A DNA stretch of 64,000 nt, taken from the NCBI GenBank assembly GCA_021513715.1, contig CP084167.1:2656001-2720000 (forward strand). Direction: 5' to 3'. The position numbers were made by a program, and so were the translations under genes. Source of the DNA: Candidatus Heimdallarchaeum endolithica. GTDB taxonomy: Archaea; Asgardarchaeota; Heimdallarchaeia; Heimdallarchaeales; Heimdallarchaeaceae. The notes under the pieces are model-generated. The model ran no database searches, had not been told where the DNA came from, and was given only the letters and a program-made list of their open reading frames with translations. Numbering within the stretch: position 1 is the first letter of the stretch; each line of letters begins with the position of its first letter. Positions 31,083 through 51,657 of the stretch are shown piece by piece.

Positions 31083-32160
31083 TTATATTATAAAAACTAA
31101 ATGAATAGTTAAGTGTTATTATTAGAATACGTTAATTCTTCATAAAAAAGGCAAATGTTTTTAATCAAAAAAGCAAATTTAATGACGATGTCAATTCCTT
31201 CAATCTTTGCATTTGCTTTTATAATAGAATCAACCTTATTACTTGGTTTTACAACTTTTATTTTTATGAAAACATATTTGCAAATCAGACACATTTCTAA
31301 TTTTCTAATGAGTATAGGAACAGGACTAGTAATGATTTCATACTTCGTATCTTTTGGAATGGCTTTTATTGATCAAACAGATGTGGATTCAGCAAAGATA
31401 ATTTTGTCAATTACAAACATGGTAATTACATTAGGTTTATTTCTTATTGCCTTATCTTTATTTTATATAAAATCAAAATATTTTAACATTGCAGCAATTG
31501 TAGGTTCTTTTCTTATTGGAATTGCATTTATCACAGTTTCAAATACAGAGAATCTAAAAATGCACTACGATGAAAATGTTAGATTCTGGATTAATGATTA
31601 TACTAAATATGCTAATATCTTAATGAGTTTGATTTTTCTCATTATTGTTATTTTAATTACTTTATATGTTAATGAAAAAATACGTTATATAATAAGAAAG
31701 AAGAAACTTTTTTCTTTCACAGTTCTCGGAATTTTCTTTGCTTTTGCATGGTTAGCTATAATTTCTATCCCTGGAGTATATGTTTTCAGAGTGTTTCTTT
31801 TACCTATATCGCTGTTTTTTTTAGGTTTAGATAATTTGTTCAATCCTTTAAGTTTAATAGTTTCTCATAATAAACCAACAGAAATTTTTCTTCTTTCAAA
31901 GACCAATGTTCCTCTTGTTGGCTTTAATTATAGTAAAGGAGAAAAAATAGAAGATTTAAGTGATATTAGAATACTCAGAGTTAGTCAATTGCTTATAGAA
32001 GAGAAGGTGGGAGAAACAAAAGATGCTTACTTTTCAGCAAAACAAGGAGAATTAATATCAATAGCTCATGAATAACTTTTTTGTACAAGAATAAAAATGT
32101 AGGAAGAAAAAAGAGGGGAGGAAAAAATTTAGGTTTAAATAGGAAAAAAAGATAAAATAA

Positions 32161-33498
32161 ATGATGAAGAAGAAAGGGAGTAGAGAATGGATGGAGAAAA
32201 CAGTAAGGATAACTTTACTCCCAAGTAGGAAAAAAGAAAAGTATCTAAAGGATGCGCAAAAAAAAGTAAGAGAACTAGCAAACATACTAATACCCTACAA
32301 AAAAAATGTAAAAACAGGAATGGAGTTCCACCATTTAGTATACAAAAGGTTCAGATATCTAGGTCTGCACAGTCAGTTACAAGAGAATGTGCAAAGAAAG
32401 GTATATGGGGCAAAAAAGGTAAAAAAGTTCAGAACCTTACCTTTGGAGTTCAACTTTCCCCGAAGTGGAAAGATAGCAAAAACAAGAAAAGACAACCCTG
32501 TTTTAGTTGTTTCCCCATTGAAAAAAAGGATAGCTTTTCCTATTTGCCGAGATGGAGGGTGGAGAAGACTAAAGGAGTATACAATCAAGGGGTGGGAAGC
32601 ACATAGTTGTAGAATTTTCCAACAAAAAAGGAAAAGAAAAAGGAAAGCAAAAGACCGAAAAAGAAGCAGTAAGGTCAACTATGGGTGGGTAGCACACCTG
32701 AATATTAGAAAAGAACTTCCTCCTCCTCAAGAAGTAGAGGGAACAATAGGAGTAGACGTGGGAAGAAAAGTTTTTGCTGCAGTAACACTTAACCACCCCT
32801 CTTTCCCTTTATTAGAGAGGTATATGGGAAAAGACATAGCTTGGAAACAACATCAGTTAGCAAAAAGAAGAAGAAAACTACAATCCTACAGAGATAAAGG
32901 AAGTAAAAAGGCACGGCGTGCACTAAAAAAATTAAGAATGAAAGAAAGAAAGTATAATAAAACCCGTTGTGAGCAAATAGCTCACGAGATAGTAGATTGG
33001 GCAGTAACTACCCGTTCTGCCATAGTTATAGAAAACATAGAAGGAATAAGAAGTAAATGGAAAAAAGAAAAAACTAAAAGAAGAGGGAAGCAAAGCAAAA
33101 ATCTTCTTCGAGAGTTGAATAATTGGCCTTATGGCTTTTTCCTCTCGTTTTTGACCTCTCTCGCCTATCAACACCATATCCCAGCTGTAAAAGTTGACCC
33201 TCATTATACCAGTCAAACTTGTTCTCGATGTGGACATACTTCCAAGTCTTCACGTGTTAGTCGAGGACTTTATCGTTGTGTTGCTTGTGGTATAGAGCTC
33301 AACAGTGACCGTAACGCTTCTCGTAATATAGCCTTGAAAGGTTTCTCTTTCCTTGCTTTGCCTTTCTTTAGTTCCTGGTCTTCTTTTTATCCTTTCCCAC
33401 GTGAGAAGAAAAATAATTTTCTGGTTTCCGTGGTCGAGGAGCGCTCAACCTCCTCTTCTGGCTCAATGAGTGGTAAGTTCTTCCTCCCTCCCGGATAG
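32161..33498 (+). CDS. tnpB: TnpB/Cas12f-like RNA-guided nuclease, canonical RuvC triad
   Basis: GVDVG, IVIENI, VDPHYTSQTCSRCG..CVACG..NSDRNASRNI. Confidence 0.92.
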   Translation: MMKKKGSREWMEKTVRITLLPSRKKEKYLKDAQKKVRELANILIPYKKNVKTGMEFHHLVYKRFRYLGLHSQLQENVQRKVYGAKKVKKFRTLPLEFNFPRSGKIAKTRKDNPVLVVSPLKKRIAFPICRDGGWRRLKEYTIKGWEAHSCRIFQQKRKRKRKAKDRKRSSKVNYGWVAHLNIRKELPPPQEVEGTIGVDVGRKVFAAVTLNHPSFPLLERYMGKDIAWKQHQLAKRRRKLQSYRDKGSKKARRALKKLRMKERKYNKTRCEQIAHEIVDWAVTTRSAIVIENIEGIRSKWKKEKTKRRGKQSKNLLRELNNWPYGFFLSFLTSLAYQHHIPAVKVDPHYTSQTCSRCGHTSKSSRVSRGLYRCVACGIELNSDRNASRNIALKGFSFLALPFFSSWSSFYPFPREKKNNFLVSVVEERSTSSSGSMSGKFFLPPG

Positions 33499-33555
33499 AT
33501 CTTTCTCGAGAGTAAGATTGGCGTACAAAAATTTTGTACAAAAATCAAGTTGATG
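33392..33555 (+). ncRNA. Predicted omega-RNA scaffold overlapping the tnpB 3' end
   Basis: Main internal segment conserved in the mini element; position at the right end matches TnpB omega-RNAs; hairpins such as GAGGAG..CTCCTC and ATCTT..AAGAT. Confidence 0.65.
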
Positions 33556-49808: not shown

Positions 49809-51657
49809 CATGATTTACTTTTTGTGAAGTTTGTCGAACTTAGTCTTTCAAGAAAAAAACAAAGATAGATAATTGTTAGTTTCTTGAGAACTTAATCCTA
49901 ACATACAATGAAAGAAGAAGGATTAAGACAGACGTCATACACGAATCGGGGGAATCATAAAGAAGAAAAGAACTTTTTCTTTCTTTTCTTCACTCCACGA
50001 GAGACAAAAAAGAAAAAACTAAACCCTTGAATATAAGAGTGAATAATTCTTTTTGTCTACTGGGACTGCAACCAATGGCTGAGTCCTCGGCAAACAGTAT
50101 AATGCGTAAGACTAAACTTTTGACCAGTAAAGTAATCAGTAATAGTTGTAACACGGGGACGAAAAAGATGACTAAGGAATTTACGAGCAATATTTCTAGC
50201 TCCTGTTAAATCAGAGTGGTAAGTATAGTTACAAAAGGGACAGTGTATTAATCCTCTGACGGGACGAGAAACTTCTTTTCCACAACGGGAACAATGAGAA
50301 GATGTTCCTCTTTCGTCTATTATAAGAATACGATGAGGAGCAAAACCTCTTAATATCAATGCTCGACGGAGAAGAGAAAGAACTAAAGAAAAATTCCACT
50401 GGTGAAGTTTTCTACGAAAATAACGAGTACTTTTACCTTTCCCTTTTTCTTTTCCTTTTCTAACATTTTTGGGGTAACCTACGACGACGAAAAGGTCATA
50501 CATTTGAGCATAGGTCCCTATCGTCCGCACAACGTCGTTTATAAATTGGTGAATATAGGACTGTTTAACGTTTCTATATCTCCGACGAAGATATCCAAGA
50601 AAACGATAAATTTGGTGTTTTTTACCCGACTGGTCATTTAAAGCCGCTTTCCTCTGAAGACGGGAAAACTTGAGTTTATATCTGTGATTGATTCTATTCC
50701 ACTGTTTGGTATACCAGAATTTTATCTCTTTGCTTGTTAACTTCTTTTTGGGAGTTAGTAACACTCCTACAGCAGGAATGTTTATCCCTAGATCTATCCC
50801 CAGCACAGCTGGGGGAAGAGAAGAAGAATTATTAACTGAATAAGAAAAAGAAGAAGGAGGAAGAACTTCTAATTGAAAATACACCCACCACTCACTTGTA
50901 GAACGTTTATATCTTAATTCCAGGCTTTTCACTTGTCCTTTTTTCAATTCTTTTTGATGGAAAGTGCTCATCTCTAAAGGTAACCACAATCGTTGATGAT
51001 ACCTTGTTTTTCTTTTCCACGTGTCTAATGAGTCTCTTATTCCTACCCACCAACGAGAAATAGAGTTGTTTTTCTCTTTTGGTAAATTAGTAAGAATAAA
51101 CCTATTCTTATTGATTAGTTGTTTTCGGGGTCTCTTTTTTGGAGGACGAGTGGCTTCAGGTCTATATCCTTGCTCGTACAGTTGTACTGCTATATCTCTA
51201 CACTCTTGAAACTCATCATGAGAACAGTAAGGGAACATCTTTTTAAGGTCATGAGGAACAGTCTCTCTTCGCTCTTCTACTTTTTTTAGCCTTGATGTTG
51301 TCAATGTTAGTTCATCTAGTTTTCCTCTATGTACTCTTATTTCTCCTTTCTTTGTTTTCATACACAGTCTTCTTCTGTTGTGATGTATAATTTTTACATA
51401 TTTTCTATTATCCTTGTGTCTCTCCCTGTTATTCTCCTTAATCTTTCCTTTTTTCTCCTCGTCAAAACTTCATTTTTTATTTTTACTTTCAAAGTTTTGA
51501 CTATCTTCTCCATCTTTTTTCCTCTTCTTTTCCTTTTTTTCTTTTTCTTCTCTTCATTTATTTCTACTATTTTTTCTTATAAAAAGTCTCTTTTTTTTCT
51601 TTTTCATCCATACTCTCTATCCTAATGTTCGCAAAATTACGCAAAAAGTAAATCATG
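49809..51657 (-). mobile_element. tnpB-only insertion element with terminal inverted repeats, CATG at both junctions
   Basis: Ends CATGATTTACTTTTTG and CAAAAAGTAAATCATG are a perfect 16-bp inverted repeat, extending imperfectly to about 35 bp; splits host codons H|G. Confidence 0.92.
50057..51513 (-). CDS. tnpB: TnpB with rearranged RuvC-II glutamate; N-terminus separated by a -1 frameshift at 51401-51404
   Basis: GIDLG, VVVGYP, IDERGTSSHCSRCG..CPFC..HSDLTGARNI. Upstream ATG 51513 gives MEKIVKTLKVKIKNE.., which joins the 434 aa ORF if one A is added (~485 aa). Confidence 0.85.

Follow-up and report, generated by a model that had tools for sequence, protein, structure and literature searches.

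One AT-core end design on unrelated TnpB elements and MITEs of Candidatus Heimdallarchaeum endolithica, probably moved in trans by a serine recombinase

Introduction

IS607 elements recombine at a dinucleotide core, make no duplication, form circles and choose targets that match the TAM (PMC6188088; 10.1101/2023.11.20.567912). The elements that we describe here from the archaeon Candidatus Heimdallarchaeum endolithica, which we call AT-core elements, resemble members of this group (IS607, IS1535, ISC1926, CboIStron) in the dinucleotide common to end and target, the lack of net duplication and the phased short motifs. They also pair tnpB with a predicted right-end omega-RNA and a left flank that would double as TAM, and one of their TnpB lineages, U, comes from the IS607 neighborhood. 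Although they work like IS607, they are not members of it: a serine TnpA with a MerR-like HTH is absent both in cis and from the genome, the core is a palindromic AT rather than GG, the two ends carry inverted motifs at a constant distance whereas the IS607 criterion is unrelated termini without a TIR, and two of the three TnpB lineages have their relatives outside IS607. This contrast was nevertheless overstated in an earlier, sequence-only reading of the locus, since IS607 elements also have phased motifs and imperfect inverted repeats near their ends (PMC6188088).

The IS1341-type solo tnpB elements of the IS200/IS605 group are alike in being tnpB-only and moved in trans, with a TAM-like left flank and a right-end pseudoknot (predicted here), and the outgroups of our lineage A belong among them; in contrast with IS200/IS605, AT-core elements have no subterminal left-end hairpin, show a symmetric target preference, and occur in a sister closed genome in which no Y1 enzyme was found. 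The Cas1H-Asgard TnpB loci (PMC10691335) form the sister clade of our families C and T (support 99/100), whose right end, AACTCAT/AATCAT, resembles the GTTCACTCA of those loci, but the AT-core elements are compact and demonstrably mobile, and no aCas1 neighbor or homologue was found for them. DDE-associated (IS630-linked) TnpB and TIR-borne Fanzors likewise place inverted-repeat ends around a TnpB-type gene, a likeness of end layout alone, whereas AT-core elements have no linked DDE gene and their termini are not strictly inverted. By analogy only, integrative mobile elements exploiting Xer (IMEX) likewise have no recombinase of their own and depend on a site-specific recombinase of the host, as the AT-core elements might, with the difference that the candidate here is a serine enzyme and the targets are many, dispersed and of low specificity.

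Movement of solo TnpB in trans is already known (PMC10691335), and the closed genomes of both Heimdallarchaeum species were reported without mention of TnpB (PMC8813620); we found no published description of these AT-core elements in the literature. Contributed here are a census, three TnpB origins, a rule relating TAM to right end, and candidate recombinases.

Results

Inserts of the window and their empty counterparts

The 64-kb stretch of DNA analyzed (the window) belongs to a closed genome of 3,326,783 bp and 31% GC. The sequence-only reading had placed three insertions in it, each interrupting a host CATG, and all three lie at the coordinates and have the junctions that it gave; excising each of them in silico leaves a single CATG. 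It overlooked a fourth element, the family-M MITE, which shares a 1.4-kb intergenic gap with an unpaired, degenerate family-C2 right end (Table 1). The insert near 2 kb, a MITE of 355 bp, has about 160 bp of its right end in common with the 32-kb element. The latter lies parallel to its host gene while the 49.8-kb insert lies opposite to its host; one element had been described as inverted relative to its host gene.

Table 1. Coordinates of the elements and their parts, in window positions.
Start	End	Strand	Feature	Remark
32068	33554	+	Family-A TnpB-only element, left AT core to right AT core	Second copy 99.2% identical; empty site in H. aukensis
32065	32090	+	TCAT of the host flank (predicted TAM), AT core at 32068-32069, left-end T-tract/GTAC motif	11/11 relatives whose left end can be seen have TCAT
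32161	33498	+	Family-A tnpB, 445 aa, intact RuvC D199/E291/D383 and C4 zinc finger	NF040570, 137.9 bits (cut-off 100)
33392	33554	+	Predicted omega-RNA scaffold and right end of family-A element	Region common with MITE B; pseudoknot model of 10.1101/2023.11.20.567912
31155	32067	+	Interrupted host gene, 5' part, no Pfam match	Host of the family-A insert
1961	2315	-	ORF-less family-B MITE whose right end and scaffold are of family-A type	6 copies, 98.9-99.7% identical
49810	51656	-	Family-C TnpB-only element within RNase J-like beta-CASP gene	Opposite orientation to host
50057	51513	-	Family-C tnpB, ~485 codons	1-base frameshift in A run near 51401-51404
55953	56328	-	Family-M MITE, same end geometry, empty site TCATA	16 paired copies genome-wide
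55300	55373	+	Degenerate solo right end, family C2 (approximate start)	

The RuvC residues D199, E291 and D383 and the four cysteines are invariant within family-A TnpB, and the TnpB of the 49.8-kb insert is ~28-33% identical to that of the 32-kb insert over the C-terminal part. The frameshift in the 49.8-kb tnpB copy reflects either a pseudogene or an assembly error. Neither of the window ORFs 31155-32075 and 33897-34973 matches Pfam; in the sister genome, a ~70% identical tandem paralogue adjoins the counterpart of the gene interrupted at 32 kb.

The sequence-only reading had proposed a search for empty sites in related genomes. In that sister genome, Ca. Heimdallarchaeum aukensis (CP084166), the orthologous sites of all three inserts are empty and single-copy, with a single ATG. 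The site in the RNase J-like gene is an exact single CATG and that of the family-B MITE is CATG, while that of the family-A insert is TATG through host divergence. Thus, the insertions are younger than the species split or were precisely lost in H. aukensis. An A2 insertion at genome 2833125-2834726 is older than the split: this one copy corresponds to two inverted copies ~17 kb apart with swapped flanks in H. aukensis, a layout that suggests an inversion between the copies.

A shared end design with a 2-bp AT core

End searches of the closed genome gave 132 end-like matches and at least 41 two-ended elements (A/A2, 4; B/B2 MITE, 7; C, 5; C2, 6; T, 2; U, 1; M MITE, 16), with copies found from end seeds and AT demanded at both ends, a requirement that one degenerate pair failed. 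The sequence-only reading had looked to such a search for all copies and for an autonomous member; 41 paired copies were recovered, but none of them is autonomous. Among the rebuilt empty sites, C occupies position -1 in 40/41 and G position +1 in 32/41 (78%; background 15%), and 31/41 read CATG, compared with 1.85% for AT sites across the genome (p=2e-45, binomial). The base after the AT differs between left end and right flank in 8/41 copies, while sister copies agree in their left-end base; thus, only AT is common to both junctions. The symmetric AT core that had been proposed is therefore supported, both by AT at the two junctions and by the single-AT empty sites, and the alternative of a CATG or ATG duplication is excluded.

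Read inward, the ends consist of AT, ~7 nt, a T-tract, a family-specific 4-mer and AA, often repeated at 10-13 bp. These T-tract motifs are inverted and phased, lie 8-19 bp inside the ends, and stand at equal distance at both ends in all families. Their sequence is TTTTTGTACA in A/B, TTTTTGCGAA in C, TTTTTTACGTAA in C2/M and TTTTCCCCAC in another genus, so that of the inverted TTTTTG(TACA) motif described earlier the geometry is general and the sequence belongs to single families. Relatives of A, C and U in other genera likewise retain junctions of the AT type, and their subterminal motifs are also inverted but differ in sequence. In families C and U, the two ends form near-perfect terminal inverted repeats; the terminal bases of A/B are not inverted (GAATAAC vs CAACTTG), and terminal bases vary among close copies. 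As the sequence-only reading held, the ends are not IS200/IS605 hairpins: left ends fold no better than shuffled sequences (z -1.0, +1.6 and +0.7).

Copies up to 99.7% identical indicate recent spread. A +1 G follows 35/40 intact right ends and 7/28 degenerate right ends (p=2e-7), as if copies with imperfect flanks get stuck, although this contrast could also stem from G-to-A drift. One junction-like host site, at genome position 2068102, proved to be a chance gene start.

Family-specific flanks and the predicted TAM

The host flank left of the element is TCAT in 10/11 A/B copies and in 11/11 relatives, CAT preceded by a base other than T in 28/29 copies of C/C2/M/T, and for U it is GAT, while the right ends finish with TGAT (A/B), TCAT (C/C2/M/T) and CAT (U). 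These flanks point to family-specific TAMs, predicted as TCAT for A/B, VCAT for C/T/M and GAT for U, in place of the single YYCAT(G) of the sequence-only reading. Since the guide starts just after the right end (for the family-A element it would begin at host base 33555), a TAM that matched the right-end sequence would expose the occupied site itself to cleavage. In no family is the left-flank motif the same as the sequence at its own right end, as would be expected of a TAM that avoids self-cleavage.

Omega-RNAs are known to end in a pseudoknot (10.1101/2023.11.20.567912). At the family-A right end, the terminal GTTGA can pair with a TCAAC ~110 nt upstream; more generally, the terminal bases complement a 5-6-mer 105-150 nt upstream, covarying in A, B, C, C2, M and U, while no such pairing was found in T. 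MITEs B and M retain predicted omega-RNA-type scaffolds. An Rfam search gave no match.

At least three TnpB lineages carry these ends

The locus had been taken to represent one distinct TnpB family; instead, a single end design is borne by at least three unrelated TnpB lineages and by MITEs. A and C as a single clade were rejected (IQ-TREE, p-AU 3e-48), and support was 92/94 for A beside the hairpin-ended solo tnpB and 99/100 for C beside the aCas1 clade; U was absent from this tree and placed by FastTree only, and the deep branches are long. Family A occurs in Heimdallarchaeaceae only; the closest outgroups are solo tnpB elements of other Asgard families, and their hairpin-like ends finish with TGAC or TTAC. 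With a FastTree support of 99, lineage U groups with IS607 elements of the serine-TnpA kind from Hodarchaeales-like genomes; a serine TnpA gene adjoins one of these elements.

The clade sister to families C and T belongs to another Asgard family, has right ends with GTTCACTCA, and places tnpB head-to-head with genes for 1400-1900-aa proteins. The N-terminal 250 residues of these proteins fold like Cas1 in a fold search (Z 12.8, rmsd 4.2, 192 aligned), which alone was significant, as hhalign to CRISPR Cas1 was not. These loci of TnpB and a giant Cas1-fold protein match the Cas1H-Asgard loci of PMC10691335. Beyond the Cas1-fold N-terminus, the giant proteins have a PD-(D/E)xK-like motif and further domains, and an inverted copy of a GTTCACTC motif lies upstream of tnpB. 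A longer C-related subgroup retains CTCAT at the right end and lacks a clear left end; its 520-aa TnpB lies directly behind a gene for a ~900-aa HerA-like ATPase or the 3' remnant of that gene, hinting at a larger element.

Two standalone serine recombinases as candidate movers

None of the at least 41 elements encodes a mobilizing enzyme, in keeping with the earlier proposal of non-autonomous elements moved in trans and lacking a standard TnpA in cis. No autonomous member was found behind the 35 solo ends of this genome, nor among relatives at A-, C- and U-type loci. IS607 TnpA (serine, N-terminal MerR-like HTH) was found in neither closed genome. Each of them has two resolvase-family genes with a C-terminal DNA-binding domain, the same two in H. 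aukensis, and these, SR1 and SR2 (genome 316728-317450 and 405348-406097), are the only serine recombinases found in the two closed genomes. They are paralogous, standalone proteins of ~245 aa (240 and 249 aa), shaped like truncated large serine recombinases, and keep the catalytic Ser and the D/NRxSR motifs. PF07508 does not match them; in structural models, a catalytic domain is followed by a long helix E and a winged-helix domain, and the best match is to serine integrases (Foldseek E 1e-9).

Of 25 Heimdallarchaeaceae genomes, 23 have SR1/SR2, whereas searches of other Asgard families recovered none; Thermoplasmatota have homologues, which are standalone as well. We tentatively regard SR1/SR2 as the leading candidates for moving the AT-core elements, with less than even confidence. 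Against this, their co-occurrence with the elements counts as a single evolutionary event. They never adjoin tnpB or sit within AT-core ends, and SR1 lies in a fixed host synteny; U-type elements with CTCAT right ends are present in two genomes of neighboring families (85% and 68% complete) in which the SR family was not found. Some Heimdallarchaeaceae genomes have extra, diverged SR1/SR2-type copies.

This genome also has one Y1, which belongs to an unrelated IS605, one tyrosine recombinase, CRISPR Cas1 genes and four multi-copy IS types. The lone tyrosine recombinase was rejected because a 2-bp core does not fit it, as were the three Cas1 loci because they are CRISPR-type. A search of the Atlas gave no usable match.

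Discussion

The AT-core elements are probably non-autonomous TnpB/omega-RNA cassettes and MITEs that recombine conservatively, in the manner of IS607, at an AT core of 2 bp, with a serine recombinase provided in trans. The enzyme would bind the T-tract/RYRY motifs of both ends, and the excised circle would carry one AT at its junction and reintegrate at C-AT-G-like sites, the palindromic AT allowing either orientation. TnpB, guided by host DNA beyond the right end, would then cut vacated sites that bear its TAM (TCAT, VCAT or GAT), such that repair restores the element. Serine core exchange is favored by AT at both junctions, outer C/G bases that are variable and host-derived, single-AT empty sites, both orientations, the more frequent +1 G at intact than at degenerate right ends, and left-flank motifs distinct from each family's right end, and it accords with the known chemistry of IS607; the proximity of lineage U to serine-TnpA IS607 elements, and the motifs, fold and family distribution of SR1/SR2, may also point to it. 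It is odd for one strict enzyme that the end motifs differ between families.

The same serine chemistry could instead have been supplied by an ordinary IS607 TnpA, now lost or visiting on a plasmid or virus, with SR1/SR2 irrelevant; this is a sub-case of the explanation just given as regards chemistry and a rival as regards the enzyme only. Such a source is suggested by the grouping of lineage U with TnpA-carrying IS607 elements, by canonical IS607 in other Heimdallarchaeaceae genomes, and by the described movement of solo TnpB in trans (PMC10691335). We nevertheless consider it rather unlikely, because IS607 TnpA was found in neither closed genome although copies are up to 99.7% identical. 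Moreover, the IS607 elements of the other family genomes, which carry a 650-aa TnpB, have unrelated left ends (ACCGT/ACTGT) and GT-type right ends (GTGCGT/GTGTGT) and were rejected as donors of the AT-core ends for that reason, and none of the ~35 serine TnpA loci inspected has AT-core ends.

Integrated copies alone do not tell a 2-bp core from an AT duplication of that length, and ISL2EU-like DDE elements make a 2-bp AT target duplication. A DDE transposase acting on TIR elements of this kind would suit the near-perfect terminal repeats of families C and U and the palindromic target preference. However, DDE enzymes normally require inverted terminal bases, whereas those of A/B are not inverted and change even between close copies. 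Ends and flanks of the four resident multi-copy IS types are unrelated to those of the AT-core elements. In a search that covered part of the DDE families outside IS630, PF13359 was found in neither closed genome, and PF01548 (IS110) was not found. Thus, while TnpB is known to accompany DDE enzymes with symmetric ends (PMC10691335), we judge this explanation improbable.

Mobilization by an Asgard Cas1-like integrase (aCas1), or by another unrecognized enzyme, appears more improbable still. Cas1 integrases make long duplications, unlike the 2-bp AT seen here, and an aCas1 would leave lineages A and U unexplained. Its profile matched in 0/30 family genomes and nowhere in this genome, although a more distant aCas1 may escape the profile; in its favor, family C is sister to the clade ending in GTTCACTCA, the Cas1H-Asgard motif, beside the giant Cas1-fold proteins (PMC10691335). 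An IS200/IS605 (IS1341-type) route, in which a Y1 HUH TnpA would cleave at NCAT on the left and TCAT/TGAT on the right, accords with the TAM-like and TEM-like tetranucleotides at the ends, the hairpin-ended nearest outgroups of lineage A and the one Y1 gene of this genome, but it is very improbable given that Y1 would leave the base after the right end unspecified whereas it is G in 78%, and its hairpin mechanism was rejected on the folding of the left ends, which form no hairpins, and on the closed H. aukensis genome, which holds at least 14 C-type copies and in which no Y1 was found.

Returning to a serine recombinase acting in trans, a speculative scenario, less likely than not, is that three TnpB origins (IS1341-like, aCas1-linked and IS607-linked) independently took on a common att-like end design and so hijacked a domesticated host protein resembling a truncated large serine recombinase, with TAM and guide selecting the insertions that are kept. 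If so, these elements would constitute a class of OMEGA elements that exploits a host recombinase, and a ~245-aa serine recombinase would need a target of only 2-4 bp. Host recombinases acting as movers would be unusually small integrases of low specificity, whose conserved host role needs explaining. More broadly, TnpB cassettes can apparently swap mobilization routes and converge on one end design whatever their ancestry, in archaea close to eukaryotes, and the flanks add an argument from sequence that TAMs are kept distinct from an element's own right end.

Several observations concern neighboring mobile elements. Heimdallarchaeaceae IS607 elements apparently have a GT core, and in most copies of their ~650-aa TnpB the RuvC-III Asp is replaced by H. 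An IS at genome 208300-209450 is present in 26+ copies at AT-rich sites, with a 307-aa transposase and the ends AAGCATGTCC...GGACATGCTT. Finally, an M MITE at genome 925509-925883 directly precedes the single Y1 tnpA gene of this genome, on its upstream side.
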